64,000 bases of DNA from Escherichia phage Delraymugoa, in the sequence record OR896825.1; one strand, 5' to 3'. The position numbers were made by a program, and so were the translations under genes. Below, piece by piece: positions 22,008 to 43,299 of the stretch. The notes beneath the pieces were generated by a model. It saw only the letters and a list, made by a program, of their open reading frames with translations. It had not been told where the DNA came from and did no database searches. The first letter of the stretch is position 1. Each line of letters opens with the position of its first letter.

Positions 22008-22008
22008 A

Positions 22009-24647: not shown

Positions 24648-24676
24648 AATTGATTCTCCTTAGTTGGTATGTGTGT

Positions 24677-24705: not shown

Positions 24706-24708
24706 CAC

Positions 24709-25274: not shown

Positions 25275-25282
25275 CTAATTTT

Positions 25283-25801
25283 TTAGTAGCCGCGTTCTTG
25301 ACGGGCGAAGTTTTCAGCATTTTTCAGATAGTACAGAATAAAGAGTTCTTGAGCGTCAATACCCAGCGGGATCATCTTTGACAGAATGAAGTGGATCGCG
25401 TCCACAAATTCAAATTTCACTTCAAGCTGATCTTCCGGTGACAGTTCAGAGAATTTACGCGCTCGCGCTTCTCCGTGGTTCTTTTTCCACATTTTCCAGA
25501 TTGCACTTGCATCTTTACCATTGGACATTCCACCCAGCGATGTGTAAAGCTCTCGTGTTTCGTCTGCGATAGCGTCATCCATCCGTTGCATCCAATCCAG
25601 CATTTCACCGCAAGTCTCTAGCTTAGTTGGATTTGGGACCCAATCAAATTTTTCGGATAATGCAACCTGCAAACCAGTTTGCATTTCGAGCATCACCTGA
25701 AACGGATCTTTACCTTCTGCAATAGCGTGATGATATGCGGCGATAGCCGCGTTAATATCTTTTTCGTTAACCAGACCAGCACAAGAATTAAATTCTGACA
25801 T
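25283..25801 (-). CDS. 56: dCTP pyrophosphatase gp56 (MazG-like)
   Basis: Shared T4 gp56 blocks DPFQVML(E/D)MQ, KLET.G(E/D), SPEDQLE.KFE, YYLKN.ENFARQ.RGY; start moved to ATG (MSEFNSC) with GAGGTGA Shine-Dalgarno. Confidence 0.85.
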   Translation of the reverse strand: MSEFNSCAGLVNEKDINAAIAAYHHAIAEGKDPFQVMLEMQTGLQVALSEKFDWVPNPTKLETCGEMLDWMQRMDDAIADETRELYTSLGGMSNGKDASAIWKMWKKNHGEARARKFSELSPEDQLEVKFEFVDAIHFILSKMIPLGIDAQELFILYYLKNAENFARQERGY

Positions 25802-25815
25802 ATTCACCTCATTAA

Positions 25816-26844
25816 TTAAAATTTACAATATTTCATAAACCGCATTTTAGCCATCAGACCTTGTACGGTGTTCTCTTTGATGTATTCCATGATCTGGTCG
25901 CGTGTAGCGCCCTCGTCCTGAATCATGGCGTTAACGTCTTTAGAATGCCACGGGCAACGATCCCACAATACAATCTTTTCCCCTGCATTGATAAACTTTT
26001 CCAGTCGGTGCATTGTATCGGCAGACCGTGGTTCCGCATCAAGTACAAACACTCGCTGGTCTGGGAAAGGGATTTCATCTAATCCCAAAGTACCGCCAGT
26101 AATTGCACACCCGTTATCAATAAACAATGAATCGATCGGACCTTCTAAGAAATACACTGGTTTACTCGGATCGGCGCGTTCAAGACCATAGACCTTACTC
26201 GCTAACTCGTGAGTTTTAATCGTCATATATTTGGTCTTTCCGTAATCCTTTCTCAATGCTCGCCCCTGAATGGATTCTATCTTGTTCTCGCGGTTAAAGA
26301 TAGGAATCACTAAACGCGGTTCAGGTTGTGGATTCTTGAAAGTATCAGCCTTAATGTGATTTGCTACCTTTTGCCATTCTCTCGTGAAATACAGAAGATC
26401 CCATTTATCGTGAGGAATACAGCGATCACTGACATACTTTATTATAGGATGATTAGCCGGAAGAGTATCTAATCTCTCGCAGAAAGGCAATGTTTGCACT
26501 TTCTTAATCTCCGGCTTTTCTACCTTTTTCAGTGGCTTGAACGTGGTGTTCTTGTGGTCGCCTTGTTCCTTCCGTCGTTCCATAAGCCATTCCCTGAATA
26601 GGTCCGGCTTATACTGTTTGAGAAATTCACCTAACGGCTGATTGTAGTTACAGTTGAAACAGCCGCAACGCAAACTATCCTTATAGGTATAGATACGGAA
26701 TCGCGCTTGAGTATGATTTTTCTTTGAGTCACCGCAGATCGGACAACTACAGACCAGCGTAAATGAGCTAGTATGCAACCGTTTAAAATTTCGTTCGCCG
26801 TATATGGCTTTTTCCGCTATTTCATAATCTGCGTAGTAAATCAT
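25816..26844 (-). CDS. 61: DNA primase gp61
   Basis: Zinc finger CPICGDSK, PRLVIPIFN, LEGPIDSLFIDNGCAITGG, GLMAKMRFMKYCKF blocks shared with T4 gp61; 342 aa. Confidence 0.9.
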   Translation of the reverse strand: MIYYADYEIAEKAIYGERNFKRLHTSSFTLVCSCPICGDSKKNHTQARFRIYTYKDSLRCGCFNCNYNQPLGEFLKQYKPDLFREWLMERRKEQGDHKNTTFKPLKKVEKPEIKKVQTLPFCERLDTLPANHPIIKYVSDRCIPHDKWDLLYFTREWQKVANHIKADTFKNPQPEPRLVIPIFNRENKIESIQGRALRKDYGKTKYMTIKTHELASKVYGLERADPSKPVYFLEGPIDSLFIDNGCAITGGTLGLDEIPFPDQRVFVLDAEPRSADTMHRLEKFINAGEKIVLWDRCPWHSKDVNAMIQDEGATRDQIMEYIKENTVQGLMAKMRFMKYCKF

Positions 26845-26853
26845 ATTAACCTC

Positions 26854-27057
26854 TTATAGCTCAAATTTCATGAAAGTTCCCACACTTTCATTTTCATTCT
26901 CTCCGTTCTCATCTAAGCCAAATTTGTAGACACTACCATCTGGCGATGTGTAAGAGAATACACGAAAACGGCCTACCGAATCAAGTTCTGTAAATTCATA
27001 TTCTTTTCCGGCTTCAAAAAGTGCATATGTGCTTTTAAGACATTTCATCGTAATCAT
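26854..27057 (-). CDS. hypothetical protein (67 aa)
   Basis: ORF in array. Confidence 0.4.
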   Translation of the reverse strand: MITMKCLKSTYALFEAGKEYEFTELDSVGRFRVFSYTSPDGSVYKFGLDENGENENESVGTFMKFEL

Positions 27058-27212
27058 TTAAGCGCCACCGACAACAGAATGAGAACTACACCAACATACA
27101 TTGTGATCTCGGATAACTTTTCTGTTTTTGTTTTGTGTCCAGATAATCCGAAAACAACAACACCGACAATAGCGGACAGCAAGCCAACGATAAACATGAT
27201 GATACTAAGCAC
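27054..27212 (-). CDS. small membrane protein (52 aa)
   Basis: Start moved to GTG preceded by AAGGAG; two hydrophobic helices. Confidence 0.4.
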   Translation of the reverse strand: MLSIIMFIVGLLSAIVGVVVFGLSGHKTKTEKLSEITMYVGVVLILLSVALK

Positions 27213-27381
27213 CGTCTTTCTCCTTTTTGCGTTTTTCTTTACCAACTACACTAGGTCCACGATTGGTAATAGATCCGCTCGTTTCCCCTGCTGCGATCTT
27301 CTCAGGATTGCCGCCAGCATCGCCAGCGGTCATATCTTCTTTGAGTTTATTTTCTTCAACAAACTGTTTAAATCCAATCAT
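27205..27381 (-). CDS. small hypothetical protein (58 aa)
   Basis: Below the track threshold; ATGA overlap with upstream stop; open frame across an otherwise unannotated 130-nt gap. Confidence 0.3.
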   Translation of the reverse strand: MIGFKQFVEENKLKEDMTAGDAGGNPEKIAAGETSGSITNRGPSVVGKEKRKKEKDGA

Positions 27382-27755
27382 AGAATAATCTCTTTCAGTA
27401 AGTCAACAATCTGGTCTTTCGTCAGTTTATCCTGATTCTCTACAATCTTGATAACACAAGCATTAACATCTTTTCGAGTCACGCGGGAGATCGTTTTAAT
27501 ACGATGAAACGGTTCGTAGAAATATACTGCTTCATTATAGAGCGCAGCAATTTTTCGACGCATTTGATCTTTATCTGACAAGAAAACAAGTGCTGTTTTA
27601 TGACCTTCTACACCCGCCACGTTATATAGTTCAGCAACACCCCAGCGACCTTCCGGTTCAATCATTCCGGCGTGTTTACCGTCGATAAAAATAAGAATAT
27701 CTCCGTTGAATGCGGTTTTGAATGCTACATCTTCCGGCGTAATCATATTTTTCAT
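27378..27755 (-). CDS. hypothetical protein (125 aa)
   Basis: ORF in array. Confidence 0.45.
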   Translation of the reverse strand: MKNMITPEDVAFKTAFNGDILIFIDGKHAGMIEPEGRWGVAELYNVAGVEGHKTALVFLSDKDQMRRKIAALYNEAVYFYEPFHRIKTISRVTRKDVNACVIKIVENQDKLTKDQIVDLLKEIIL

Positions 27756-27785
27756 AATATAGTCTCCTTAGAGTTTCATTATAGA

Positions 27786-28421
27786 TCAATCGAATGTAGA
27801 AAGCAAATGTTTTGTTTCTTTCAGTTGTCGTTCAAGATTTTTGCGTTTCTCTTTAAGTTGCATTTTAGCATTATTTCGCTCTCTTGTAACCTCTTTATCA
27901 ATACTCTTATTCCAGTTATCAATATCAGAATAAGTTGGCATACCCAATTCTAGACCTAATGCGGTTGGATACAAGGTAACAGTCCATAAACCGCTAATCT
28001 TCTTAAATAGGTCGGGGTGTAGTGTACTACCTACATCTTCCGGTGTCAACTCTTTTTCTTCTTTCAGTGGTGGGATCTCGTCATATGGTTCCAGTGCATT
28101 TACTTTAATATCAGATACCTCATCAAAGAATCCGCGTACATCCGCAGGAAATACACAAGCAATTTCCCAACCGTGATCACGCAGAGAAGTAATATTTTTC
28201 ACTCCCCCACCATGTGTGATGATTGATGTGACATTGCCATCAAGGTCCACCGAATTTACGAGAAATGGCTTATCGTCTGTCAGATCATTATAAAACTGTG
28301 CTTCGGCTGTAGTCATCTCCAGAAACAGATCTCGGATCGGACGACCATCAGGTGCGTTACCTTCCTTGAGAGTATAAAAGCGACTTACGATCCATTTTGG
28401 CGGTAAAGCATTAGCGATCAT
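27786..28421 (-). CDS. hypothetical protein (211 aa)
   Basis: ORF between gp41 and gp61. Confidence 0.5.
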   Translation of the reverse strand: MIANALPPKWIVSRFYTLKEGNAPDGRPIRDLFLEMTTAEAQFYNDLTDDKPFLVNSVDLDGNVTSIITHGGGVKNITSLRDHGWEIACVFPADVRGFFDEVSDIKVNALEPYDEIPPLKEEKELTPEDVGSTLHPDLFKKISGLWTVTLYPTALGLELGMPTYSDIDNWNKSIDKEVTRERNNAKMQLKEKRKNLERQLKETKHLLSTFD

Positions 28422-28471
28422 GTTATATCTCCTATCAAATCATTCACCAGCGCCCCGTAGGGCGCATTTTA

Positions 28472-29884
28472 TTAGAAAGTCATGTTATTTGCTAGCTCGT
28501 CGAGTTTTTCTCGTTTCTCGGCTTGCTGTGCGCTTTGTGGTTTAACTTGTGCATTCTCCTGATCTGCGATCTGGTTTGGGACTTCATACCAACGCTGATT
28601 GCCTTTTTTCACACCAACGTTAAACCGTGAATAATAGTTCTTATCACCGTAACGAGACTTGATCTGCTTCATGAGTTGGACGCCCATTTTAGCCAGGTCT
28701 TCGGTTTCGATAACACCCAACATAAAGTCGGCAGTAGCCGGAAGACCTGCTGATTCAGCGGTATCACTCATGTTAAGGTCGGAAGCATCCCAACCAGCAC
28801 GGGTAGTTTGTGCCGCAGTCCAACCAACAACATCCCACTTAACAAAAAATCCGCGAAGTTCTTCCGCAATCGCTTTAACGAGAGTGTAGCTATTCTCAGA
28901 GTATACACGCAAGCGAGACGATGCGCAAATCCCCAGATAGTCAACAATCACAACATCAGGTTTAAACTGTTTCTTGAGTCGCAATTCATTCATTAACGCC
29001 TCAAAGTGATTGGAGTTCGCGCCACCAGTCGGATACTGCTTGATCATCAATTTTCCAACCGGACGATCTCCGATCTTCTTATTCTTAACACGCTTCATAC
29101 GTGCGGAATATTCCGCAAAAGAAACATTACCATTATCCAATTCATCTAATGTAATGTCAAGCAAGTTTGCGTCGATACGTTTGGCTACGACATGCTCTGC
29201 CATCTCCATTGAGATATACAATACATCATAACCACATTCCATATAATCCGCAGCAAGAGAACATAATCCAAGCGATTTACCAACATTTACACCAGCAAGC
29301 AACACATTTAGCGTTTTTCTTTCCGCGCCTCCTTTCGTGATTTTATTCAACATCGGCAGCTTAAACGGGATCTTATTCGCCTTAGTCTGATATAGCAAGA
29401 ATCGTTTTTCAAAGTCATTAAACCAGTCATGACCTACATCAGAATCAAACGTAATGGATAGTGCTTCCTGCATAATCTCAGGAATAGCGCCCTCACTCGG
29501 CAATTTCTTATTCTGTTTCTCTTTTGGTAGTTGTGCGTTCGCCTGAATCTCTAGCGCCCGTGACATTGCATTATACATGGCACGGTCACGAATAAATTTT
29601 TCTGTTTCCTTCATTAACCAATCAAGGTCTTCCGGTGTATTCTCCAGCGAATCGAGAAGAGTTTTAGCCCCTTCATATGTTGTCTGATTGCCTCTCTCCT
29701 TGTCTAAAGCAATCTGTAATGCAGTTGGCGTAGGAATGTTGGAATATTCGTCTACGTGCTTTTTAATCAGTTTATAAATCAGTTTTTCTTCGTCTTCGGT
29801 GAAGTAGTCCGCTTTAAGGTGAGGCCATACATTCGTAAAGAATGCGCCATTGTAAATCAACTGTGAAAAGATAGTTTTAATCAT
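28472..29884 (-). CDS. 41: replicative DNA helicase gp41 (DnaB-like)
   Basis: Walker A GVNVGKS, RecA-fold motifs, about 470 aa; T4 synteny 61-41-uvsX. Confidence 0.9.
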   Translation of the reverse strand: MIKTIFSQLIYNGAFFTNVWPHLKADYFTEDEEKLIYKLIKKHVDEYSNIPTPTALQIALDKERGNQTTYEGAKTLLDSLENTPEDLDWLMKETEKFIRDRAMYNAMSRALEIQANAQLPKEKQNKKLPSEGAIPEIMQEALSITFDSDVGHDWFNDFEKRFLLYQTKANKIPFKLPMLNKITKGGAERKTLNVLLAGVNVGKSLGLCSLAADYMECGYDVLYISMEMAEHVVAKRIDANLLDITLDELDNGNVSFAEYSARMKRVKNKKIGDRPVGKLMIKQYPTGGANSNHFEALMNELRLKKQFKPDVVIVDYLGICASSRLRVYSENSYTLVKAIAEELRGFFVKWDVVGWTAAQTTRAGWDASDLNMSDTAESAGLPATADFMLGVIETEDLAKMGVQLMKQIKSRYGDKNYYSRFNVGVKKGNQRWYEVPNQIADQENAQVKPQSAQQAEKREKLDELANNMTF

Positions 29885-30198
29885 ACATAGCCCCCAACTA
29901 CACGCATAACAAAGGTCTTGAGTTTATACCAGAAAGTTTCTTTTTTCAACTTTTCTTCTGCTTCTTTGATCTGCGCGGTTAACGCCTTAATGACGTGTGG
30001 ATATACCACATCACGATCTGACGGCGTGGAGTAGTCGACCACAATACCTTTAGTGTCTGGATCGTATTCAACATTATGAATATAGACAATATGATGTTCT
30101 CCCTCTTCATCAACAATTATCAGTTCCTGAATAACTGTCTTCATTGCTTCTTGAATCAAGCCGTGTGCTTCTTCTAAACTTGTTGGTTTCTTATCCAT
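29881..30198 (-). CDS. hypothetical protein (105 aa), gp40 position
   Basis: Occupies the T4 gene 40 slot between 41 and uvsX; assignment by synteny only. Confidence 0.4.
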   Translation of the reverse strand: MDKKPTSLEEAHGLIQEAMKTVIQELIIVDEEGEHHIVYIHNVEYDPDTKGIVVDYSTPSDRDVVYPHVIKALTAQIKEAEEKLKKETFWYKLKTFVMRVVGGYV

Positions 30199-30215
30199 AA
30201 TATAATCCTCTCTAG

Positions 30216-30240
30216 ATATGAAAAAGGGGCACGTAGCCCC
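30216..30240 (-). terminator. rho-independent terminator after uvsX
   Basis: GGGGC-UACGU-GCCCC followed by UUUUUCAU on minus strand. Confidence 0.55.
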
Positions 30241-30253
30241 TTTACTACCATTG

Positions 30254-31324
30254 TTATGCTAACATATCTTCGATTTCTTTGTCAACTGCTTCGTCGCTGA
30301 TCACTTGCCCCAGCTTATAATGATCGTTGATTGCTTCGTTAAACTTATCGTTTGTCAGAAGTGGTTTCCAGAACTCAATGCTATTGGTTTCTTTAGCACG
30401 GAACTTGCGTTCTTCGGTTTCCATCTCTCCGGTCTCGGTATTTAGGATTGAACGAGAATACCAGCCGTTTGACGGTTTCACTACCCAGCCTAACTCTACA
30501 GCCAATTCCAGCAACCCGGAATAAGGATCGATACCACCGCTAAATGTTACGCTAATCGGGAACTTAGATTTTTCTTTAACGGTTCGTGATTTTTCCGCAT
30601 TCAGGATAAAATCATAACCAGTAATTTCGGTTCCTTCTTTCTGCTGACGACGACCAATAATGAAAACTTCATTGGCTGAATACATCGCGCCCGTACCGCC
30701 GGACATAACGGTCTTACTAAACATTTCTTGCGTTTCGTAAGTGTGGTTAATAGCGATGCACGGGATATCATTCATAGTCAGATACGGCGTAACCATACGG
30801 AACAAGCCTTTAAGTGCTTTAGCTCGCGTCATATCCTGCGCTGATTTCTCATTAATCGCGTCTTCAACTTCTTTTTTGCTTGCTAAGTTACCGATTGAGT
30901 CAATAAAGATGATCACTTTATCTTCACGGGTAATTTGCTCAAGCTGGTTCATGATTTCAAATTTCAGTTCTTCGATGTTCTTGATTGGAACATGCACCAC
31001 GCGATCAGGATCTACACCCATAGATTCAAGATAAGCGGACGTAATACCAAACTCAGAATCAAAGAACAAGCACGCCGCATCAGGATTCTGTTTCATGTAT
31101 GCACTAACGCAAGTTAATCCCATGTTTGATTTAAAGTGCTTAGACGGACCAGCAAAGAAAATCAGACCAGATTGAAAGCCTTTTTTAAGATCACCTGAAA
31201 ACGCAATATTCAGCATCGGGATCTTAGTGCGAGTATTTGTTTTTTCGTTAAAGAAGCTGGATTTAGACAGTACCGCAGTAGTTTTCAGGGTAGAGTTCTT
31301 TTTCAGTTTTTCCAGTACAGACAT
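30254..31324 (-). CDS. uvsX: recombinase UvsX (RecA-like)
   Basis: Long identity blocks with T4 UvsX (KIPMLNIAFSG, CIAINHTYETQEMFSKTVM.GGTG, RTVKEKSKF). Confidence 0.95.
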   Translation of the reverse strand: MSVLEKLKKNSTLKTTAVLSKSSFFNEKTNTRTKIPMLNIAFSGDLKKGFQSGLIFFAGPSKHFKSNMGLTCVSAYMKQNPDAACLFFDSEFGITSAYLESMGVDPDRVVHVPIKNIEELKFEIMNQLEQITREDKVIIFIDSIGNLASKKEVEDAINEKSAQDMTRAKALKGLFRMVTPYLTMNDIPCIAINHTYETQEMFSKTVMSGGTGAMYSANEVFIIGRRQQKEGTEITGYDFILNAEKSRTVKEKSKFPISVTFSGGIDPYSGLLELAVELGWVVKPSNGWYSRSILNTETGEMETEERKFRAKETNSIEFWKPLLTNDKFNEAINDHYKLGQVISDEAVDKEIEDMLA

Positions 31325-31335
31325 TATTAATACCT

Positions 31336-31563
31336 CTATTCAGTTAATCCGTAATACTTTAATTGCTTCATTGTTATTCGATCTTTGTAGTGCTCTTGAA
31401 TTAACTTTTTCATCGCATCAACATCGATCGTCACAAATACTTCGTTGCTGTGATTTCCGTGAACTTTCTTGAAATGCTCTATGCCTTCCTCACGTTCACG
31501 TTTAATCTTTTCAATGTCTCTCATCGTATATTTCTCACGTTGGCGGGTATCGTCACCCAACAC
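31336..31563 (-). CDS. hypothetical protein (75 aa)
   Basis: Only ORF between uvsX and gene 43. Confidence 0.4.
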   Translation of the reverse strand: MLGDDTRQREKYTMRDIEKIKREREEGIEHFKKVHGNHSNEVFVTIDVDAMKKLIQEHYKDRITMKQLKYYGLTE

Positions 31564-31585
31564 CCGCCATTATACACACTTTATC

Positions 31586-34264
31586 TTAAATGTCAAACAG
31601 GTCAGTCAGAGAAGCAACTTTCTCATATTGCAGCTTTGCAGCCGTGGTAATGTTCTCCAGTGGTTTGACGAAAGTCTTATTAAACAACAAAGGCCAGTCT
31701 AACCACTTTAACACCTCTGATTCAATTTCTGGAGGAATACGAGTACCGGACAACCAACCAAAACAGATTTCTCCAAACGGATTTCGATCTTTCAGCGGTA
31801 CAATCATAACCTTCTCGCCCTCACGAATTGGATCTAGTCCGAATTTTCGAGCATTACGATTATAACACAATACACTCTTAACCGCATACGGACAACCCTT
31901 AATCGGATACCCGTTTGAATCGCTGTATTTCTGTAGGTTGTTTGCAGATGATACCGCAGCAACCTCAAGATAATCAAGTTTTCTAAATTCTTGCTCAAAA
32001 ATACCGTAGTATTCCTGCAATGACTCTTCACCTTCCTGCAACATACGGCGAATACATTCTTTCAGTGATTTCTGACATGCTTTAGGGGTGGAGCTACGTT
32101 GCGTTTCCAAGCCCATGATTTTTAGCTTAGGTTCAGCAAAGCGCGTTCCTTCCATATCCCAAACATTAAGAGCATAACGCTTTTTGCCAGTCCAGAATCC
32201 ACCGATACCCGCAGATTTCAACGGAGGACCAGCAATTGCCTCACGGTCCATAAACATCAAGTGCTCATAGTTGTTCATGTACTCGCATAACTCGCGATAT
32301 CCCTTGTCGATAATAGGTTCCATTCGATGTTTACCGAAATTATCAAGGAAGTCAACAAGTTTTTCGGTATCGTCGAAACGGTCTTCCCCGCCAACCTTAT
32401 CAACAACATTGTTAACCAGCACATAAACGGAGTCAGTATCACAATAACGAACATATGCAAAATCGGTTGTTCCGCAAAGCTCGTTTAAGTATTCGTTAAT
32501 CTTACGCTCAATCCACTGAATTGCAAGCTGACCAAACAAGGTGATCGCACTAGCGTTACGGAGATCATAAAAACGGAATTTAGGATTCCCCAACGCACCA
32601 TAAAGGGAGTTGATCAAAACTTTTCGAGAAAGCTGGTTTGTATTGCACAAGATCGACTCGTCTTTACATTCTTCCAGCAATTTCTCTAAGGCATCTTTAC
32701 TTAATTCAGAAAGCATCGATTTAAACGCTTCATCAAAGTCGTGACGTACTTCAACGCTATAGCTAATGGTTCCCCCATAAACATGATTTTCATCGTGTAG
32801 AATCGCTTTACAGAGTTCAGCATTGCGATCACATGCCAACATCATGTTTTTGTACTGCTTACGCTGATCGAATACCTTTTTAATCTCAATCGGTACGATA
32901 CCGTGAATATCTTTTCTATACATCCATCCGTTAGGAGAGCAAGAATACTCATCACTCGGACGTGGTGCAGTTTTATTGATATACTCGTGCATCGGTGCAG
33001 CATCAAAAGATCCGGCGATTGTTTCCGGCGAAATGTTAACCTGTCGAATAATAGATGGGTACAGACTTGTTAAGTCAAAGCTCATCATCCAACGGTAAGC
33101 ATTCGGCACAGGTTCTTTTACGAATGCGCCTGGATACGTCTGCTTAGGCTGTATCTTATTTTCCGGTACTACTTTACCCTCAGCTTTCAGAGATCCGAAG
33201 ATAATAGCATCCCATACTTTCATCGGGTTATAAACATGGTTAAATTTAATCTTTGCATAGAAACATAGACTATACACCAGATCGATAAATCCACGCTTTT
33301 TATCAATCGCCAGCACACGATCAACGTCGCCGATGTTATAATCGATGTAAAGTTGATGGTTGTCATCACGCAATTTCTTTAACGGACCATCATAATCAAC
33401 CTTACCGATTCCTGTCTCATATTCAGCAACATAATCTAACGCATATGTTGGTTGAGTCGTAAAGCTAAATTTCTTGTATAGGTCAATATAATCAAGGCTT
33501 TCGATCCCCATGATCGTAAATGCTTCACGCTCGTTGCCAAAATCATCCTGTGAGATTCGGGATTTAATCTTACCGCACGGGCTTAGACGGTTAGCGGTTC
33601 TACTTCCGAACTTATTACTGATACGTTTAATGATATATGGAATATCGAATGTTTCTGTGTTCCAGCCAGTGAAACCAACGGGTCGGTTTTCCTCAAAGAA
33701 TCGGATGTATTCTAACAGCAATTCATCTTCTGTGTCATAGACGTTATAAACAACGCGATCTACAATATCAGGTCGAAGAATAGACTTGCTTGCTTCCCAG
33801 ATTTCACCGTTTTTTCCTTTCAAATCAAATACAAAGAAACGATCATGTACGGAATCATAATGCGTAATTGCATCGATAGGATATTTCGCTTCTTCTGGTT
33901 TAGGAAATTCCGGTGCAGTGACCTCGATATCAACCCATGCTACACGGATTTTATTTCGGTCATATCGAATCTCGCCTTTATACGTATCAGACAGATAGGA
34001 GATGATAAAATCATCCATCCCTAGCGCCTCTTGCCCCATTTCTCCCATCTTTTTACGCCATTTGTTGGCCTCGTTCATAGAGGGGAATTTTTTAGCAATG
34101 CAAGGCTTGCCATAGATATCTTTATAATTCGTAACCATACCAGGCGCGGCATGATGAAATAAAGTTGGCGTATATTCAACGTAACGCTCTTGTTCTTGTC
34201 CAGCATCATCAATATAACGCTCGTAGATCTTATCACCCACTCGCTCACATGACAGAAAATACAT
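31586..34264 (-). CDS. 43: DNA polymerase gp43 (family B)
   Basis: Exo and Pol motifs shared with T4 gp43 (YPSIIRQVNISPETI, NSLYGALGN, YCDTDS); start moved to ATG (MYFLSCERVG) with AAGGAG Shine-Dalgarno. Confidence 0.95.
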   Translation of the reverse strand: MYFLSCERVGDKIYERYIDDAGQEQERYVEYTPTLFHHAAPGMVTNYKDIYGKPCIAKKFPSMNEANKWRKKMGEMGQEALGMDDFIISYLSDTYKGEIRYDRNKIRVAWVDIEVTAPEFPKPEEAKYPIDAITHYDSVHDRFFVFDLKGKNGEIWEASKSILRPDIVDRVVYNVYDTEDELLLEYIRFFEENRPVGFTGWNTETFDIPYIIKRISNKFGSRTANRLSPCGKIKSRISQDDFGNEREAFTIMGIESLDYIDLYKKFSFTTQPTYALDYVAEYETGIGKVDYDGPLKKLRDDNHQLYIDYNIGDVDRVLAIDKKRGFIDLVYSLCFYAKIKFNHVYNPMKVWDAIIFGSLKAEGKVVPENKIQPKQTYPGAFVKEPVPNAYRWMMSFDLTSLYPSIIRQVNISPETIAGSFDAAPMHEYINKTAPRPSDEYSCSPNGWMYRKDIHGIVPIEIKKVFDQRKQYKNMMLACDRNAELCKAILHDENHVYGGTISYSVEVRHDFDEAFKSMLSELSKDALEKLLEECKDESILCNTNQLSRKVLINSLYGALGNPKFRFYDLRNASAITLFGQLAIQWIERKINEYLNELCGTTDFAYVRYCDTDSVYVLVNNVVDKVGGEDRFDDTEKLVDFLDNFGKHRMEPIIDKGYRELCEYMNNYEHLMFMDREAIAGPPLKSAGIGGFWTGKKRYALNVWDMEGTRFAEPKLKIMGLETQRSSTPKACQKSLKECIRRMLQEGEESLQEYYGIFEQEFRKLDYLEVAAVSSANNLQKYSDSNGYPIKGCPYAVKSVLCYNRNARKFGLDPIREGEKVMIVPLKDRNPFGEICFGWLSGTRIPPEIESEVLKWLDWPLLFNKTFVKPLENITTAAKLQYEKVASLTDLFDI

Positions 34265-34296
34265 AATATAAACTCCTTCACTTACGAAAGACACTC

Positions 34297-34325
34297 ATTA
34301 TAGGGGAATCGACTTAGTTTGTCAA
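34297..34325 (-). promoter_or_regulatory. sigma70-type promoter for gene 43
   Basis: TTGACA-N17-TATAAT between regA stop and gene 43; flanked by ATAGGGG..CCCCTAT inverted repeat. Confidence 0.55.
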
Positions 34326-34346
34326 TACCCCTATCCCATCAGTATC

Positions 34347-34709: not shown

Positions 34710-34710
34710 T

Positions 34711-35289
34711 TTACCACCTTTCTATAATCTTTTTAAGTCGTTTCCTTTCTGTCTGATTCTTAGTAACACCCGCCAAAAGTTCATCGGTCGCATACGGTTT
34801 AATGTGCTTCAATAACTTGTCCATATATCCCTTTTCATTAGCCAAATCGAGATAAAACCGGGCGTCATCCATATTTACACAATATGCTTTCGCCACTGCC
34901 ATTAAAACCAATTTTTGGTCCAATTCTTCTGTTAGTTTAGCCCATTTACCGTATCGTTTCCCCTTAGAAATACTCTGTAAGAGATAATCAAAATGCATTT
35001 GATCTGGGAGGCCATGACCGATTAAATTCATCACATACGCGCTATATAGACAATCTGCGTGCTGCGAAAGAGCGGTATTAATCCATCTCTGATTGTATGC
35101 AGAATTGTTTCCCACATTAACGCGCTGTTTATCTAAGGTGATATGATCCATCAGAGCAAATAATGCATTGTCGGTTTTCTCGGTGAATGTATCCGCTAAT
35201 TCAGACACTTTTTCCCAATCACGAGAGCGCCATGCAATTTCATGCTCGTTTAATTGTGTATCATCTTCACCGAAAAATTGACCTAACAT
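34711..35289 (-). CDS. 62: clamp loader small subunit gp62
   Basis: QLNEH..AW.S.DW, RYGKWAKL blocks as T4 gp62; synteny. Confidence 0.85.
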   Translation of the reverse strand: MLGQFFGEDDTQLNEHEIAWRSRDWEKVSELADTFTEKTDNALFALMDHITLDKQRVNVGNNSAYNQRWINTALSQHADCLYSAYVMNLIGHGLPDQMHFDYLLQSISKGKRYGKWAKLTEELDQKLVLMAVAKAYCVNMDDARFYLDLANEKGYMDKLLKHIKPYATDELLAGVTKNQTERKRLKKIIERW

Positions 35290-36263: not shown

Positions 36264-36296
36264 ATAATCACCTCTCACAAATTACATCATTAAAAC

Positions 36297-36316
36297 GGGG
36301 AGTATTTACACTCCCC
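36297..36316 (-). promoter_or_regulatory. intergenic stem-loop between gp45 and gp44
   Basis: GGGGAGU-N6-ACUCCCC; same stem family as the promoter-associated hairpins but with no -35 element. Confidence 0.4.
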
Positions 36317-36328
36317 ACAAACATTATA

Positions 36329-37015
36329 TTAGTCGGTGTAGCTGGAGTCAAGGTCACACGCGATCATATAAGATACGGTTTCACTTGCCAGCCATACAGC
36401 CTTACGGCGAGTGAAGCTCAGTTTGTAATCGCCGAAGTCAGTAGCAACCAGTTTCATGTTATCTTTACGAATAAAGAAATGGAAGTCTGCGGTTCCGGTA
36501 TATTCGCCCATATCAAGACAAAACATCTCATTAGGATTATTTTTGTCAATCTCTTCCCAACCTTTGATCATCAGACGACCATCAATCGGGAGAAATTCAA
36601 GGCGGTCCACTTTAAGCTGATTGCTCATTTTCATAAGCTGTTTCAGATCGTCGTTGCTCAGTTCGTAATCTACATCGCTTGCGGGTGGAGTAACTCGGCC
36701 TTTCGGTGATACGATGGCGGCAGCACTAGCACCAGGATAATTAATTTTCAGACGATCGTTAGACACACGAATGTTACCAGTGCGGTCATCAACCGTAATA
36801 TCTGCTTCATCGCCTACCAGATTCAGAATACCCAAGAAAGAGTTAAGATCATAGATCCCAATTTCGTGTTCCAGTTCTTGATTCAGAGTCGCTTCACCAT
36901 ATACAACGTTTGTCATGTTTTTGGTGATCAGGACGTTTCCTTTTTTCAGGATGATACCTGGGTTAATAGCGGAAAAGTTTTTCAGGGTAGCAATGGTTTC
37001 TTTAGTCAGTTTCAT
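36329..37015 (-). CDS. 45: sliding clamp gp45
   Basis: MKLTKETIATLKNFSAINPGI matches T4 gp45 N-terminus; 228 aa from the ATG. Confidence 0.9.
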   Translation of the reverse strand: MKLTKETIATLKNFSAINPGIILKKGNVLITKNMTNVVYGEATLNQELEHEIGIYDLNSFLGILNLVGDEADITVDDRTGNIRVSNDRLKINYPGASAAAIVSPKGRVTPPASDVDYELSNDDLKQLMKMSNQLKVDRLEFLPIDGRLMIKGWEEIDKNNPNEMFCLDMGEYTGTADFHFFIRKDNMKLVATDFGDYKLSFTRRKAVWLASETVSYMIACDLDSSYTD

Positions 37016-37045
37016 CAAATCACCTTTATCATGTTAATCAATTAA

Positions 37046-37444
37046 TTACGGGTTTACTTCGTGCTCATTTTGAATCTTTAGCATTCTTTCGATAAATTTT
37101 TTCTCGGCTTCCTTGTCGGATGAGTGAGTATACTTCAATCCAATGTAAGCTGTCAAGTATTGTTGCAGAGCATAGACAGTAACAGGATTCTTTGCGGTCT
37201 TTTTGCCGTCGAGATATACCAGATCACCACGAACATCAAACGCAAGTTTACGACGAATCACATCATCAACAAATTTATCTAGGACAAAATACCACTCAAT
37301 ACATTCTATCCCGTGACGGTAGTTCATTACATCGTTATCTTTGATATAGTCAAACGGAATATGACATAATTTACGATTTTGTAGGATGAATAGCATTTGT
37401 TCTTTTAAGCTCATACGTTTCATTCCATCACTTCCCATCAGCAA
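37046..37444 (-). CDS. hypothetical protein (132 aa), rpbA position
   Basis: Occupies the T4 rpbA slot next to gene 45; assignment by synteny only. Confidence 0.4.
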   Translation of the reverse strand: MLMGSDGMKRMSLKEQMLFILQNRKLCHIPFDYIKDNDVMNYRHGIECIEWYFVLDKFVDDVIRRKLAFDVRGDLVYLDGKKTAKNPVTVYALQQYLTAYIGLKYTHSSDKEAEKKFIERMLKIQNEHEVNP

Positions 37445-37820
37445 TTGCGATCAGACGAGTTACTACTACGCTAGCGGCTTCAATCAGCAGTTCATCAGTG
37501 TCAATCTGATAACCCTTTTCGAGAATATCTTTACCTCGAATAGTTTTAGCACCTTTAGCAATTGAATCATCGTAATACTTGCGCATTGCCGCGATCCATT
37601 CTTTTTGCACCATATCATCAATATGCGCGTACAGTTCAAAGCGTGCTTGCTGCGGGATAACCTTCATTTTAGCTTTCTCGCTTTCTGGCATTTGTAGTAC
37701 CCACGCTTTACGGATCTTGTTCATTGCTCGGTCAAATTCGAGACTGGTTTTCTTGTTCTGAATGTCTGCTACAGTAATTTTAGCCAGGTTTGCGGAAGTA
37801 GTCATAATATTAATCTCCAA
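37428..37820 (-). CDS. hypothetical protein (130 aa)
   Basis: ORF in array. Confidence 0.45.
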   Translation of the reverse strand: MEINIMTTSANLAKITVADIQNKKTSLEFDRAMNKIRKAWVLQMPESEKAKMKVIPQQARFELYAHIDDMVQKEWIAAMRKYYDDSIAKGAKTIRGKDILEKGYQIDTDELLIEAASVVVTRLIAIADGK

Positions 37821-37835
37821 AATAAAATCAGTATA

Positions 37836-38066
37836 TCACGTTCTAAAGTTTGTTGCAACCCCAGCATCAGGGTAATCAAGTTTATCAAAGTTGGGGACCA
37901 GCATAAACTCATGATGACGGCAAGACAACATTTTTGTTATGTCTTCATCGCTGTATATGCTGTTTTTCATATCCCACATACTAACTACATATTCTTCACC
38001 GGAATATAGATTGATTAAGGTATACAATTCTAACTCCGGCTGCGTTACTCTGTCAAATGTTAACAT
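37836..38066 (-). CDS. hypothetical protein (76 aa)
   Basis: ORF in array. Confidence 0.4.
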   Translation of the reverse strand: MLTFDRVTQPELELYTLINLYSGEEYVVSMWDMKNSIYSDEDITKMLSCRHHEFMLVPNFDKLDYPDAGVATNFRT

Positions 38067-39735
38067 TCATTTCAGTGAATCGCCCACGTTTAACCATCTT
38101 GAGATGACGGCTAAAATCATCAGGGTTATGGTCACGATGGCTGATAATATACACGTTATCATCTAACTCGTCAATGATGGAATCAAGTGCTTTTACGCCT
38201 TGAACGTCCGTAGCCCCATCATAAATTTCGTCGAGTACCAACAAAGAAATATTAGTACCAGATACTTTACCAGCAACATCACGCCATGTAAAGAGCATCG
38301 CAAGGTCAATACGTGCTTTTTCGCCTTGACTGAATGATGTATACGAAAACGATTCACGCCCCCGTGATTTGATTGTTTCGTTAAACTCTTCATCTAGCGT
38401 AAAGATATAATCCGCTTCCATGATATCTAGATAATACGCAATCCGATCATTGAAATATGGAATATATTTCTTGACGATAGACGCCTTAACACCGGAATCC
38501 TTCAACATTTCTGTTACAAATCCACGATGATATTTTTCAAGAACTAGCTTTGATTTTTCATTAGTAATCTCTACCAGTTCGTGTTCCAGTTTAGCAAGTT
38601 CTTCGGAATTGTCAACCCTTTCTTTTTGTAATTCCTGAATTGCTTTCTGGATCTGTTTAGCCCGACCTACAGATGCCGTTAAATTCGCTCTCTGTGACTC
38701 TATAGCGCGTTTAATTTCCAAGACCTTAGTTTGTGCTGTCTGGAAAGAATTGGCTTTCTCTGCGTATTCTACGCGTTTCTCGTCAATAAGAGACAGTTTA
38801 TGTTCGGCTTGTGCTTTTTGTTCGCGTACAGCCTGATCATTACCCTGAATGATCGGTTGTGTGCACGTAGGACAGATCCCGCCTTTCTCGTGCATATGGA
38901 TAACACGGTCAAAGTTCTGGATCTGCTCACCAATCTGTGCGATAGCAGTATTAATTTTAGCCAATGCTGCGCTAGGATCTTCCGGCATAACAACAGCCAA
39001 TAGCTCATCGGTCAAGCGCGTTTCTTCGGCTTTAAACGCTTTAGCTGATTCTACTTCTTTCTCGTACATATTCTGCAAACGCTGTAGATTCTCGGCACTC
39101 GCCTTGCTAGCGTCTTCTATGTACTTTTTATGAGTGTTGATTTGTTGCTGAACGTGATTAGCTTTCATTTCCTGCATTTGGATATTCTGGGTAATCTCTC
39201 GCACATACGCTTTATTCAGTTTATCCATTTCGCCTAGCGTAGCAATATCAAGCAAATCCTCGACCAGTTTACGGCGACCCGCTGCCGGAAGACTCATAAA
39301 CGGAACATAACCAGCAGTGCCTAAAACAACGATCTGTTTAAAGCTGGCTAGGTTCATGCCTATGATACCTTCAAAATATTCCTGAAAGTCTTTGGTGCTT
39401 GCGCTCTCGTCGATCTTTTGACCGTCGCGATGCACTTCGAATACTTCCGGTTTTTGACCACGTTTGATATAAAACTCTTTCCCGTCCAGTTCAAACCAGA
39501 CTTCGACTAACAGTTTCTTTTTGTTGACGCTGTTAATCAATTGGCCTTTCTTGATACTACGAAACGGTTTACCGAACAACACAAAGCAAAGCGCCTCGAT
39601 CATTGTTGATTTACCAGCACCGTTAACACCAGTGATTAGTGTCTTTTTGAATCCGTCTAGCTGAATCTCTACAGGTTCAGCACCCACGCTCATTATATTT
39701 TGATAGCGCAAGGTTTTAAAATTTAACTTTGCCAT
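38053..39735 (-). CDS. 46: recombination endonuclease subunit gp46 (Rad50/SbcC-like)
   Basis: N-terminal Walker A GVNGAGKST, coiled-coil middle with CPTC zinc hook, C-terminal signature; start moved to ATG (MAKLNFK) giving 560 aa as in T4. Confidence 0.9.
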   Translation of the reverse strand: MAKLNFKTLRYQNIMSVGAEPVEIQLDGFKKTLITGVNGAGKSTMIEALCFVLFGKPFRSIKKGQLINSVNKKKLLVEVWFELDGKEFYIKRGQKPEVFEVHRDGQKIDESASTKDFQEYFEGIIGMNLASFKQIVVLGTAGYVPFMSLPAAGRRKLVEDLLDIATLGEMDKLNKAYVREITQNIQMQEMKANHVQQQINTHKKYIEDASKASAENLQRLQNMYEKEVESAKAFKAEETRLTDELLAVVMPEDPSAALAKINTAIAQIGEQIQNFDRVIHMHEKGGICPTCTQPIIQGNDQAVREQKAQAEHKLSLIDEKRVEYAEKANSFQTAQTKVLEIKRAIESQRANLTASVGRAKQIQKAIQELQKERVDNSEELAKLEHELVEITNEKSKLVLEKYHRGFVTEMLKDSGVKASIVKKYIPYFNDRIAYYLDIMEADYIFTLDEEFNETIKSRGRESFSYTSFSQGEKARIDLAMLFTWRDVAGKVSGTNISLLVLDEIYDGATDVQGVKALDSIIDELDDNVYIISHRDHNPDDFSRHLKMVKRGRFTEMNVNI

Positions 39736-39979
39736 TAATCCACTCCGCAATCACACATTCCATAATATTAAATGCTAACACATCTTCATCAATGTTGTAA
39801 ACACTTGCCGCCTTCACTTTAACTAATGTGTCTCTGCGATCTGGCAGCATGACCACATAATCCAGTGTCACAGGATCATATGTCATAAAGGGATCAACAT
39901 AAATCCCTTTATTCAATGCCAGATATTCGCGAAGACCTTCTATAACCCTGTGTCGAAGGTAGGTCATCGATAGAATCAT
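39716..39979 (-). CDS. hypothetical protein (87 aa)
   Basis: ORF between 46 and 47. Confidence 0.4.
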   Translation of the reverse strand: MILSMTYLRHRVIEGLREYLALNKGIYVDPFMTYDPVTLDYVVMLPDRRDTLVKVKAASVYNIDEDVLAFNIMECVIAEWINGKVKF

Positions 39980-40548
39980 TTTAGTTTATGTTCCTCTAAA
40001 AATTCTTCAATTTCACCTTGCAGATCTTCCGCTTGTTGTTCCAGAATGTCACGAAATTCACCTACAGTCAAGCGGTAATCACATTTCACCAGTCGATGCG
40101 GGAGAATATACCCTTTATACATTGTCTCTGACGCTTCCAGGAATACCCCACTATGCATGACAGAGATCCAACCTGTTAGCGTCAATGGAGTATTCGGAAA
40201 ATAATACTTGCTGGATTGTTTCCACTGGACGAAAGCACCATATACAATCGGATTATATTCACCAACCACACTCTTAATAATGGATTCTACTTTGTCTTTT
40301 ACAAATACGCCCATATCCATAGTGGTCATCAATTCTTGTGGATGAATCACTTTAAGGTAACGACGATAGTCATCATCATAATACAGCTTAACTACTGGTT
40401 CACCCCACATTTGAGCAATATTCGCTTTCAGATATCCATAGATCGGATTCTTATCATATGATTGTTTTAGCGTGTAGGTATGCAACAGCGTAATAAAATG
40501 TCGCATTACCAGTTTATCTGGATCAACCGCGCCCATAGTCGTATTCAT
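39976..40548 (-). CDS. hypothetical protein (190 aa)
   Basis: Start moved to ATG with GAGGAA Shine-Dalgarno. Confidence 0.45.
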   Translation of the reverse strand: MNTTMGAVDPDKLVMRHFITLLHTYTLKQSYDKNPIYGYLKANIAQMWGEPVVKLYYDDDYRRYLKVIHPQELMTTMDMGVFVKDKVESIIKSVVGEYNPIVYGAFVQWKQSSKYYFPNTPLTLTGWISVMHSGVFLEASETMYKGYILPHRLVKCDYRLTVGEFRDILEQQAEDLQGEIEEFLEEHKLK

Positions 40549-40840
40549 AATATGTTCCTCGTTCAATTTCATATTGTTTCAGGTCTTCTAAGAGTTCATC
40601 CACTGCTTGTTTCAGCACATGACGCAGCGTAAAGTAATAGCTTTCATCAAATTCTATTTCCGCGCGAGGAATAGAGCGAAACTTACACTTAACGGTAGTA
40701 TCAGTTAGTCGCTTTTCGACCATCATCCGAACTTCTTCATGCTCTTTGGAATACCATACATCAACGGAGACCCCCTTACGTCGAGCAAACATAGGCAATG
40801 CCGCATTAAATTCCATTACCTTTTGTGCAAGTGTTTTCAT
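40523..40840 (-). CDS. hypothetical protein (105 aa)
   Basis: ORF in array. Confidence 0.45.
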   Translation of the reverse strand: MKTLAQKVMEFNAALPMFARRKGVSVDVWYSKEHEEVRMMVEKRLTDTTVKCKFRSIPRAEIEFDESYYFTLRHVLKQAVDELLEDLKQYEIERGTYYEYDYGRG

Positions 40841-41088
40841 CGTACAGACTCCATAGATCCACGCGCAATAACATTCTGGGTAATATCAGCAATCTTACGG
40901 GATACGATGTTTGTTAGCCCCTCTTTGGTGATATTTTCACGATCAAATGGGATTTCGTCATGAGTCCACAAACCATAGTTAGATCGAAATGATAGCATAT
41001 ACTGACCATCTCGCACAACCTCAAATACATGGATCTTAGTGAATTTCGATAAACCTTCGTTGATTTCTTTCAGTGCATTAGTAATCAT
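40837..41088 (-). CDS. hypothetical protein (83 aa)
   Basis: Start moved to ATG (MITNALKE) with GGAGG Shine-Dalgarno downstream of promoter. Confidence 0.45.
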   Translation of the reverse strand: MITNALKEINEGLSKFTKIHVFEVVRDGQYMLSFRSNYGLWTHDEIPFDRENITKEGLTNIVSRKIADITQNVIARGSMESVR

Positions 41089-41113
41089 AACAACCTCCAA
41101 TCAATTTTTAGAG

Positions 41114-41142
41114 AGTATAACGGGGATTTCTCCCCGCGTCAA
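41114..41142 (-). promoter_or_regulatory. sigma70-type early promoter with palindromic spacer
   Basis: TTGACG-N17-TATACT; spacer contains CGGGGA-TTTC-TCCCCG. Confidence 0.55.
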
Positions 41143-42168
41143 CTAACTTTTTGCGCTATTTACCTCGGCTAAAAGTTCATCAGAAATACGCTTGACCGCC
41201 GCAAGTTCTTCCGGTTCTAGGTTTTGTTCTTCCAGATATTCATAGACCATCTGAATAGTGCTTTTAACTTCAATAACACCTGTTTCCTGTGATGCGCTAC
41301 TCTCCAGCTTATGGACCACTTTTAGCTTGTGTACAACGGCCTCTAACGCGCTTTCTAACTTAGTTAACCCATTATCAGCGACCGTTGCAATAAGACGCAC
41401 ACTAAGCCCCTTAAAGCGTTCTACATCGATTTTATCATCTGACGGGTAAGTGATACGCACATGATAAGTTTTGTCATTCTGGATAAACTCCTTTTTGTGT
41501 GTATCGGTATCGAATACCCAAAACCCACGCGGATCGTTTTCGTCACCCGCCGTTAGTGTGTATGGTGTACCTATATACGTTACGTTACCGCCATCGCTGA
41601 TAGTATGAAAGTGACCAGAAAACACTTCACGGTATTTCTTGAGGAAGTCCGCGCTATAACCTTCGGATTTTAGTCCTTTATAGAAATAGTAGCCAGACAA
41701 TTCCCAATGGCCTACACAATATTCGCTGAATGAGTTTTGAATAAACTCTAAAATCTCTGATTTATTGTCATCACAAAACCACGGGAACAGATCAAATGAT
41801 ACACCATCAAAGGTAACTGTTTCCGGTTTATCGATAACCTTAATGCAATCATACTGGCTTAACACTTCACGCGGTGCGTTAGGCTGGATCTTGTTTCGTT
41901 TAAACATATCATGATTCCCGACCGTGGTATAACAAGTAATACTAGCCTCTTCCAGTAACGGGATGATCTTAGTACGGTTAAATTTCATGGTTTCATGGGT
42001 AATTGCTTTTCGGCAATCAAACCAATCCCCTGTTTGAATCCATGTCTTAATATTATGCTCTTTGGAGTATTCAACCGCTTTCTTGATGGTGTCAAGAATA
42101 TACTCATGCACCCACGGATCATCGCCACCGATACCAGTATGCAGATCACCTAAAAGCAAAATTTTCAT
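41143..42168 (-). CDS. 47: recombination endonuclease subunit gp47 (Mre11/SbcD-like phosphoesterase)
   Basis: MKILLLGDLHTG, GNHD, GHxH phosphoesterase motifs; 341 aa; synteny. Confidence 0.9.
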   Translation of the reverse strand: MKILLLGDLHTGIGGDDPWVHEYILDTIKKAVEYSKEHNIKTWIQTGDWFDCRKAITHETMKFNRTKIIPLLEEASITCYTTVGNHDMFKRNKIQPNAPREVLSQYDCIKVIDKPETVTFDGVSFDLFPWFCDDNKSEILEFIQNSFSEYCVGHWELSGYYFYKGLKSEGYSADFLKKYREVFSGHFHTISDGGNVTYIGTPYTLTAGDENDPRGFWVFDTDTHKKEFIQNDKTYHVRITYPSDDKIDVERFKGLSVRLIATVADNGLTKLESALEAVVHKLKVVHKLESSASQETGVIEVKSTIQMVYEYLEEQNLEPEELAAVKRISDELLAEVNSAKS

Positions 42169-42206
42169 AGTCTCTTCCTCTCTTCGTTTTCGATGCTCTC
42201 ACTATA

Positions 42207-42236
42207 TCACAGAAAAATAAAAAGGGAAACCCCTTT
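42207..42236 (-). terminator. rho-independent terminator upstream of gene 47
   Basis: AAAGGG-GUUU-CCCUUU hairpin followed by UUAUUUUUCUG. Confidence 0.45.
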
Positions 42237-42259
42237 CAGAGTCTCCCTTATAAAAGCCA

Positions 42260-42547
42260 TTACAGCATACTTAATACCGTTTGCCGTGTACTAATCCACA
42301 TAGCAGAAAGCAGTTCTGGCGTGTGTGGCTGTTTGTAGATATCACGTAACTTTCCGATAGCGTAGATATACGCATCACGGTTATCATCGATGATAGCTTG
42401 TTCAGCCCACAGCTTAAGGCGTGCAATCTCTCGCGAGTTCTTACGCAAGATCTTTTCCGCTTTCTTAGAGGCTTTCGCCTCTAGTTCTGCTTGTACTTTG
42501 TCTACTTCATTCACTACAATCTGGTCATGTTGTTCATCGTAAGTCAT
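42260..42547 (-). CDS. hypothetical protein (95 aa)
   Basis: ORF in the slot where T4 carries alpha-gt. Confidence 0.45.
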   Translation of the reverse strand: MTYDEQHDQIVVNEVDKVQAELEAKASKKAEKILRKNSREIARLKLWAEQAIIDDNRDAYIYAIGKLRDIYKQPHTPELLSAMWISTRQTVLSML

Positions 42548-42548
42548 A

Positions 42549-42782
42549 TTATTTTCCTTCTGGGATATAGTCGATGATTAAAGAAAATTCATCTTCTGAT
42601 ACATTATAGCTATGTGAGATTGTACCCGTAAAGACCTCAAGATCCGGTGATTTGATATTGCACGGATCGATAATCACCGGAACGCCGCAATCTCTCAAAA
42701 ATAATTTGGCGAAATACGGCACGAGGTCAGTTTCAAACTCTGCTTCTTCCAGCAAACGGGAAATGTTAATTTTCAATCTCAT
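42549..42782 (-). CDS. hypothetical protein (77 aa)
   Basis: ORF in array. Confidence 0.4.
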
Positions 42783-43299
42783 AAAATTGGTCCAGGCTAG
42801 GCAATTCCTCGGTCAATACATCTTCAACCTTTGGCGCTTTCGGTTTATTGACCGATTCCTCGTAGTTGTTGATTTTATCGTAAATGTCCTGTATGAATGC
42901 CTCATCAGCAATCTGGCACATATCAGCGTCGCGTTCGTCATATACATGATGCACAAAATATTTGTATTTTGCGGCTGTCGCTGTTCTCTCTTTTTTAATG
43001 CGCTGTACAAAAGCATTAAAGCACGCTTGCGTGATGTAAGCATGAGGATTTTTATACTTTGTCTCGTCAAAATTAATCAAACCCTTGACCGCCGCTTCGA
43101 TTCCGTCGTCGATCATTTCTTCGCGCCATGTTTGACTATAACCAGAAAAGTTAAAACGACGTGATAGATTTTTAGAGATTTGCATAATTGCTAGGCCGAT
43201 TTGATCGCTCATTGGAACTTGCCGACCTTCTGCTGCAATTTGTTGTTTCCAACGGCAAATTTCTTCGTAAAGCTCTTTATTGTTTACATAATCAGACAC
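42766..43299 (-). CDS. 55: late transcription sigma factor gp55
   Basis: [57 protein letters not shown] near-identical to T4 gp55; GTG start with GAGGG Shine-Dalgarno. Confidence 0.95.

Follow-up and report, generated by a model that had tools for sequence, protein, structure and literature searches.

An RB49-like phage region that lacks the cytosine-modification and MotA/AsiA genes of T4 and retains gene 56

Closest described systems

The hydroxymethylcytosine (hmC) system of phage T4 comprises gp56, gp42, gp1, the products of the glucosyltransferase genes alpha-gt and beta-gt, and those of alc, denB and arn. Here it is compared with a segment of Escherichia phage Delraymugoa (sequence record OR896825.1), of which a stretch of 64 kb out of a genome of about 164 kb, called the window below, was visible to us; the region of main interest occupies positions 25283–43299 of the window. 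T4 and the window have gp56 (49% identity) and Dam in common, and T4 also has gene 1, cd, td, frd and denA in common with RB49, in whose genome they lie elsewhere. On the other hand, gp42, both glucosyltransferases, alc, denB, arn, ndd and imm are found neither in the window nor in RB49 or phage SAP (OZ034687.1). The explanation that we favour, with a probability of roughly 85%, is that the window comes from an RB49-like phage with ordinary cytosine in its DNA, in which the hmC network and the MotA/AsiA system are absent and gp56 is kept for its role as a dUTPase and in the supply of dTMP.

The absences, as well as the retention of gene 56 in RB49-type phages, are already known from the literature of 2002–2010 and were restated in 2025–2026. 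The RB49-type phages have no gene 42, and alc and denB show the same distribution (Petrov et al. 2010). RB49 has neither the hydroxymethylase nor the beta-glucosyltransferase, and its DNA is cut by HpaII and NheI (Yaung et al. 2014, PMC4041780, Fig. S1), two enzymes whose cutting is blocked by hmC (PMC4041780). The genus Krischvirus has been described as dCTPase-positive and denA-positive, and as negative for hmC, denB, ndd and alc (Nikulin et al. 2021, 2025; PMC8056088, PMC12115623). In the DNA of phage TB34 (OX001802.1), high-performance liquid chromatography with mass spectrometry detected canonical cytosine only (PMC13390438). Hence the DNA of close relatives, unlike that of T4, has ordinary cytosine (PMC4041780, PMC13390438), and this part of our explanation is taken from the published work on RB49 and TB34.

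A similar pattern is seen in Pseudotevenvirus (the RB43/RB16-type phages), which has the dCTPase/dUTPase and denA and lacks gene 42, denB and alc (PMC12115623, Table 4). The gp56 of that group is 51% identical to that of the window. The difference is that Pseudotevenvirus is a separate genus and has ndd (PMC12115623, Table 4). As for transcription, the T4 system of sigma appropriation by MotA and AsiA is surrounded by modifiers of the host RNA polymerase, and of these Srd, ModB, RpbA and gp55 are shared with the phage studied here, while motA, asiA and the MotA-box promoters are missing, as published for RB49: in that phage neither Nolan et al. 2006 nor, as they state, Desplats et al. 2002 could detect a motA orthologue or a middle-promoter consensus (PMC1524935).

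Identity of the region and its empty slots

The region 25283–43299, about 18 kb, aligns over its full length with more than fifty RB49-like coliphages of the genus Krischvirus at 97.4–98.8% nucleotide identity, and it corresponds to positions 9490–28064 of RB49. The flanking parts of the window are 96–98% identical to the same genomes. Three window segments, compared with RB49, kaaroe, W115, kvi, SAP and TB34, yield 97–99% identity over 93–100% of their length; the ICTV criterion for a genus is nucleotide identity of at least 70%. No record is identical to the window, the nearest overall being phage kaaroe. The G+C content of the window is about 40%, and nearly all genes are on the minus strand. 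The window is thus a part of the early and replication region of an RB49-like, T4-type coliphage of the genus Krischvirus.

Protein queries from the T4 reference record, applied by tblastn, place the homologues in the T4 order. On the minus strand, gene 56 is followed by 61, a 61.1-like gene, Dc1, Dc2, 41, 40, uvsX, one small open reading frame (ORF) and 43; then come regA, 62, 44, 45, rpbA, 45.2, 46, four small ORFs and 47; and finally an ORF of 95 amino acids (aa), one of 77 aa, and gene 55. The landmarks are well conserved: the primase gene 61 (25816–26844, minus strand, 51% identity to T4 gp61, E 1e-110; RB49p016), the helicase gene 41 (28472–29884, minus, 57%), the recombinase gene uvsX (30254–31324, minus, 63%), the DNA polymerase gene 43 (31586–34264, minus, 55% over 903 aa; RB49p026), the nuclease subunit gene 47 (41143–42168, minus, 57%) and the late sigma factor gene 55 (42766–43299, minus, 61%).

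Two of the T4 slots for modification genes are empty, as the earlier note on this DNA had read from the ORF list. Between uvsX and 43, the gap is 262 bp, compared to 3.6 kb in T4, where it holds segA, beta-gt, 42, imm and imm.1. The sole ORF in this gap (31336–31563, minus strand; RB49p025) is 75 aa long if it starts at GTG, but its length is probably 62 aa, counted from the ATG at 31524, the start used in RB49. Residues 14–75 match PHROG 12120, a family of unknown function, and no Pfam match was obtained. It was considered as a substitute for Imm and rejected: the product is hydrophilic and charged, and therefore is not an Imm-like membrane protein.

The gap between 47 and 55 is 598 bp, compared to 3.15 kb in T4. 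Its two ORFs, already listed in that note by their lengths of 95 and 77 aa, turn out to be homologues of the T4 alpha-gt neighbours. The first (42260–42547, minus strand) is recovered by T4 a-gt.4 in a tblastn search (E 6e-15) and matches Pfam DUF2654 (3e-22); the second (42549–42782, minus strand) is recovered by a-gt.5 (E 2e-7) and yields a match to Pfam DUF5491 (3e-4) that is below the family cut-off. Hence a-gt.4 and a-gt.5 are retained, and alpha-gt, mobB, a-gt.2 and a-gt.3 are missing from the slot.

RB49, phi1, JSE, kaaroe, W115 and kvi, all of them Krischviruses with 97–99% nucleotide identity to the window, share its gene order and have their slots empty in the same places. Moreover, 57 records are colinear with the 18-kb region, and hence the empty slots are a genus-wide feature. 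What does differ among these otherwise near-identical genomes is the content of homing endonucleases. The HNH endonuclease gene RB49p040, which in RB49 is situated between 47 and a-gt.4, is missing from the window at 42168–42260, and SAP and TB34 differ from the window by HNH genes around 61.

Search for the missing genes outside the slots

The T4 beta-gt, gp42, imm, alpha-gt, MotA, AsiA, alc, denB, ndd and arn queries gave no match in a tblastn search of the window (E > 0.3 for all of them, and E > 1 for motA and asiA). The search was extended to two relatives: RB49, whose genome was covered from base 490 onwards, and SAP, whose genome was covered completely. In the three sequences taken together, tblastn recovers 56, dam, denA, cd, frd, srd, a-gt.4 and a-gt.5; beta-gt, alpha-gt, imm, motA, asiA, alc, denB, ndd, arn and motB yield no match in any of them, and neither of the DNA glucosyltransferases has a match better than E 0.5. 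The annotation of the whole RB49 genome agrees: 56, dam, cd, td, frd, denA and gene 1 are present, and no 42, alpha-gt, beta-gt, motA, asiA, alc, denB, ndd, arn or imm is annotated. In particular, the window has no match to gp42, the dCMP hydroxymethylase, and, as judged by these searches, the genes directed against cytosine DNA or protecting hmC DNA (alc, denB, arn) are absent from the window, RB49 and SAP.

In RB49 and SAP, the gp42 query matches only td, and weakly so (E 0.006–0.013, 23% identity). The td gene is the sole member of the thymidylate synthase family in both genomes (RB49 136870–138102, SAP 10691–11923), and its product of 410 aa owes its length to an internal insertion of about 130 aa relative to ordinary enzymes. 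An Asn residue marks the dUMP-specific thymidylate synthases, whereas dCMP hydroxymethylase has Asp in this position. The product of td has kept this Asn, within LGLPFNVASY, as well as the catalytic Cys. Since the residues are of the thymidylate synthase type and an internal insertion accounts for the extra length, the possibility that the long td of RB49 is a disguised hydroxymethylase was rejected. Nor was a glycosyltransferase or thymidylate-synthase-like domain found in the larger ORFs of unknown function near 55 and nrdD, where a single DEAD-box helicase-like protein was seen.

The earlier note had left two options: ordinary cytosine with gp56 in another role, or a hydroxymethylase and glucosyltransferases encoded elsewhere in the genome. 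The second has in its favour that only 64 kb of about 164 kb are visible and that this lineage has other T4 genes in new places, dam being situated beside nrdC/49 and a gp38-like adhesin gene far from 37. It is nevertheless very improbable and finds no support in the close relatives. Neither RB49 (again without its first 489 bases) nor SAP has a homologue of these genes, their only thymidylate-synthase-family gene is td with its synthase-type Asn, and alc, denB and arn, which are distributed like gene 42 among the T4 relatives, are absent as well. Published genus-wide surveys agree on the absence (PMC12115623, PMC13390438, PMC2993671). The first option is the one supported, both by all of this and by the ordinary cytosine of RB49 (PMC4041780) and TB34 (PMC13390438). 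The hmC network (42, alpha-gt, beta-gt, alc, denB, arn) would then be absent from the lineage rather than relocated.

Conservation and probable role of gp56

Gene 56 (25283–25801, minus strand) encodes a dCTPase/dUTPase-family pyrophosphatase of 172 aa, assigned by homology to T4 gp56 and by Pfam and PHROG matches. The start is the ATG at 25801, while the listed ORF of 174 aa begins at a GTG at 25807. The protein aligns with T4 gp56 at 49% identity over 171/171 residues (E 2.5e-50), scores 24.8 bits against Pfam dUTPase_2 (PF08761; cut-off 22.9) and matches PHROG 173, NTP pyrophosphohydrolase (5e-37). All 24 family-invariant residues, defined in two alignments (122 and 51 homologues), are kept, among them D80, E81, E84, E127, E131, D134, K160, N164 and R167. 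From what is known of the superfamily, we take the conserved acidic residues to be metal-binding. The gene is thus intact, as it had been described before.

The AlphaFold model of gp56 is all-helical (pLDDT, the per-residue confidence score of the model, 95). Against the fold of the all-alpha NTP pyrophosphatases it gives moderate scores, and generic helical bundles score barely lower. A sequence search of the PDB with gp56 gave no match; accordingly, among the all-alpha NTP pyrophosphohydrolases (dimeric dUTPases, MazG, HisE, DCTPP1/RS21-C6) no solved structure matches gp56 by sequence.

One could suppose that gp56, left over from an ancestor with hmC, no longer has a function and is in the process of being lost, given that its classical partner gp42 is gone. 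The state of the gene makes this very unlikely. The ORF is intact with every family-invariant residue in place, and its divergence from T4 resembles that of the replisome proteins (61, 51%; 41, 57%; 43, 55%; 44, 53%). While the window and RB49 differ in gene 56 by a single synonymous base, the allele of SAP and TB34 (SAP 46156–46674; TB34 1564–2082; the two sequences are identical) encodes a protein with only 69% identity to that of the window. The two alleles differ at 59% of synonymous sites (pS, the proportion of synonymous sites that differ, 0.59; pN, that of nonsynonymous sites, 0.21), and the pN/pS ratio of 0.36 fits purifying selection on both. Further, gene 56 is kept in all non-giant T4 relatives, and where it is missing a host-like dUTPase has apparently taken its place (PMC2993671). 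A search of the window, RB49 and SAP with a trimeric Dut sequence as query gave no homologue, and no second dUTPase gene was found in them.

Gene 56 is mosaic within Krischvirus: the alleles diverge, and the flanking 61, uvsX and 55 are nearly identical. HNH homing-endonuclease genes are situated beside 56 and 61 in SAP and TB34, and none is found there in the window.

We infer that gp56 has been retained because its role in the T4-type phages exceeds the exclusion of dCTP. It would be the only dUTPase-family enzyme of the phage, keeping uracil out of the DNA. Alongside dCMP deaminase (cd), td and dihydrofolate reductase (frd), it would also feed dUMP and dCMP into the synthesis of dTMP for a genome with 60% A+T. 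The likeliest role is thus that of the sole dUTPase and of a supplier of dUMP and dCMP. In that case gp56 may work mainly as a dUTPase, its dCTPase activity being reduced or balanced such that the dCTP pool survives.

Cytosine state and the SAP report

Several points weigh against the reading of an ordinary-cytosine phage with gp56 in such a role. The absence of the genes outside the window rests on relatives that are 97–99% identical, and not on the remaining genome of this phage, and sequence searches would miss any distant analogue of AsiA, MotA or a glycosyltransferase, not homologous to it, that one of the many ORFs of unknown function might encode. The catalytic residues of gp56 are the same as in T4, so the sequence by itself gives no sign of a reduced dCTPase activity, and our literature searches found no published enzyme assay of any Krischvirus gp56; a fully active dCTPase would be hard to reconcile with cytosine DNA. 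Finally, a paper of 2026 reported 5-hydroxymethyldeoxycytidine (5-hmdC) and alpha-glucosyl- and alpha-gentiobiosyl-hmdC in the DNA of SAP, and found no genes of the pathway (PMC13390438).

The SAP report suggests another possibility, namely that cytosine in the Krischviruses is modified via a pathway non-homologous to that of T4, with gp56 in its classical role of dCTP removal. It would account for the hmC-type bases of SAP and for its sensitivity to the type IV enzyme BrxU, both observed despite the lack of a detectable synthase or glucosyltransferase gene (PMC13390438), and it is compatible with the unchanged catalytic residues of gp56 and with the many ORFs of no known function. However, canonical cytosine is reported for TB34 (PMC13390438), whose genome is 99.96% identical to that of SAP and whose gene 56 is the same; the latter also led us to reject the divergent gp56 allele as the cause of the difference in cytosine between the two phages. 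The DNA of RB49 is cut by hmC-sensitive enzymes (PMC4041780), and RB49-type phages perform generalised transduction of host cytosine DNA (PMC12115623). A tblastn search of the SAP genome yields no homologue of gp42 or of a glucosyltransferase. Moreover, SAP shares its nucleoside profile with seven Tequatroviruses isolated in the same collection (PMC13390438). Because of this coincidence we suspect a mixed or swapped stock, a suggestion that is ours and not a claim of that paper, and the gene content of SAP argues for such a mix-up over a hidden pathway. Thus we consider it very improbable that Krischviruses, this phage included, can replace cytosine by hmC-type bases made by a non-homologous pathway of which gp56 would be the one recognisable, dCTP-excluding component.

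The t–52 interval and the promoters

In T4, the asiA/arn/motA slot is bordered by the holin gene t and the topoisomerase subunit gene 52. In the window, both borders are known from the ORF list: t is situated at 5999–6655 on the plus strand (RB49p254), and 52 at 12017–13378 on the minus strand (RB49p269). The interval between them, 6656–12016, is 5.4 kb long, compared to 3.0 kb in T4, and harbours fifteen ORFs of 63–252 aa (6690–12020, minus strand). The earlier note had stated that no ORF of the size of motA or asiA lies between t and 52. As regards sizes, this is not so; what stands is the absence of homologues. Neither Pfam nor PHROGs nor tblastn relates any of the fifteen ORFs to the AsiA, MotA or Arn families, and the T4 queries AsiA, MotA, Arn, arn.2–4 and asiA.1 have no tblastn match in the gap. 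The search for AsiA or MotA analogues among these ORFs yielded no candidate, the sole annotated domains being Tad2-like and LprI-like. The LprI-like ORF of 252 aa is the only one that approaches the size of MotA, and it is unrelated to it.

MotA boxes were sought with the pattern GCTTNA-N11–13-TANNAT, the expectation being derived from shuffled sequences. The 64-kb window has two matches, compared to 2.7 expected, and since each is on the strand opposite to the local genes, neither could drive them. In the syntenic 45 kb of T4, taken as a positive control, the same pattern has 14 matches compared to 3.0 expected, 12 of the 14 being on the gene strand.

The sigma70-type pattern, on the other hand, has 62 matches in 25283–43299, compared to 48.6 ± 6.7 expected. 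Each of the six best sites has at least 11 matching positions out of 12 and is on the coding minus strand; five are situated upstream of a gene start, at a distance of about 50 bp or less, and the sixth falls inside gene 41. Their counterparts in the RB49 annotation are labelled "hypothetical early promoters". Two minus-strand sites match perfectly, 12 of 12 (TTGACA, 17 or 16 bases, TATAAT): one at 34325–34297, before 43, and one at 31596–31569, before the small ORF between uvsX and 43. The late-promoter octamer TATAAATA is not enriched, with two matches compared to 5.9 expected, and is uninformative for the early region.

The suggestion that the absence of MotA goes together with reliance on sigma70 promoters is supported by these data: there is no motA or asiA, the MotA boxes occur at the level of chance, and sigma70-type sites are situated upstream of genes. 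With the MotA/AsiA system and its promoters absent, transcription would rely on only two promoter classes, the sigma70-type early and the gp55-dependent late ones.

Some ORFs of the interval deserve mention on their own account. Directly after t, at the site of asiA in T4, an ORF of 82 aa (6690–6938, minus strand) matches the Pfam Tad2-like family (Thoeris anti-defence 2) with E 3.8e-6, above the cut-off, and also the C-terminal part of PHROG 1048; these matches make it a candidate anti-defence gene. PHROG 9457 is matched by two neighbouring ORFs, one of 109 aa (6935–7264, minus strand; 8e-57) and one of 110 aa (7373–7705, minus strand; 3e-43), which by sequence identifies them as tandem paralogues. 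The LprI-like ORF (8952–9710, minus strand) has its domain, that of a lysozyme inhibitor, at the N-terminus (Pfam E 1.4e-5).

Dam and other genes of the window

The Dam-type N6-adenine DNA methyltransferase of 270 aa (55162–55974, minus strand; RB49p063, annotated as dam) is 45% identical to T4 Dam (E 2e-63) and contains the D12-class domain PF02086 (MethyltransfD12, 1.6e-30), which places it in the family; its GATC specificity is a prediction. Dam had been reported as present, and it is, although it does not belong to the region 25283–43299: the gene adjoins nrdC/49, and genes 61 and 56 abut with no dam between them, unlike T4, where dam occupies this position. The other RB49 genes annotated as DNA methyltransferases were considered as possible cytosine-C5 enzymes and rejected, RB49p143 having the look of an MTS/Eco57I-type protein and RB49p189 having no Pfam match.

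Immediately upstream of 55 there is an ORF of 489 aa (43340–44809, minus strand) with similarity to DEAD/DEAH-box helicases (Pfam E 3e-6). T4 has no helicase-like gene of this kind at that position. Another ORF, of 261 aa (60391–61176, minus strand), corresponds to the RB49 gene annotated as a gp38 adhesin of the T2/RB69 type. It is situated amid ORFs of the early region, a long way from the tail-fibre genes, which are at the start of the window.

Implications for RB49-like phages

As a discovery, the pattern described here carries little weight, its findings being established for RB49-like phages. The only route by which it could become interesting is the SAP report. A comparison of the gp56 of a cytosine-DNA phage with that of T4 would show how the family tells dCTP from dUTP, and it would also show by what means a "dCTPase" is tolerated in a phage whose cytosine is ordinary.

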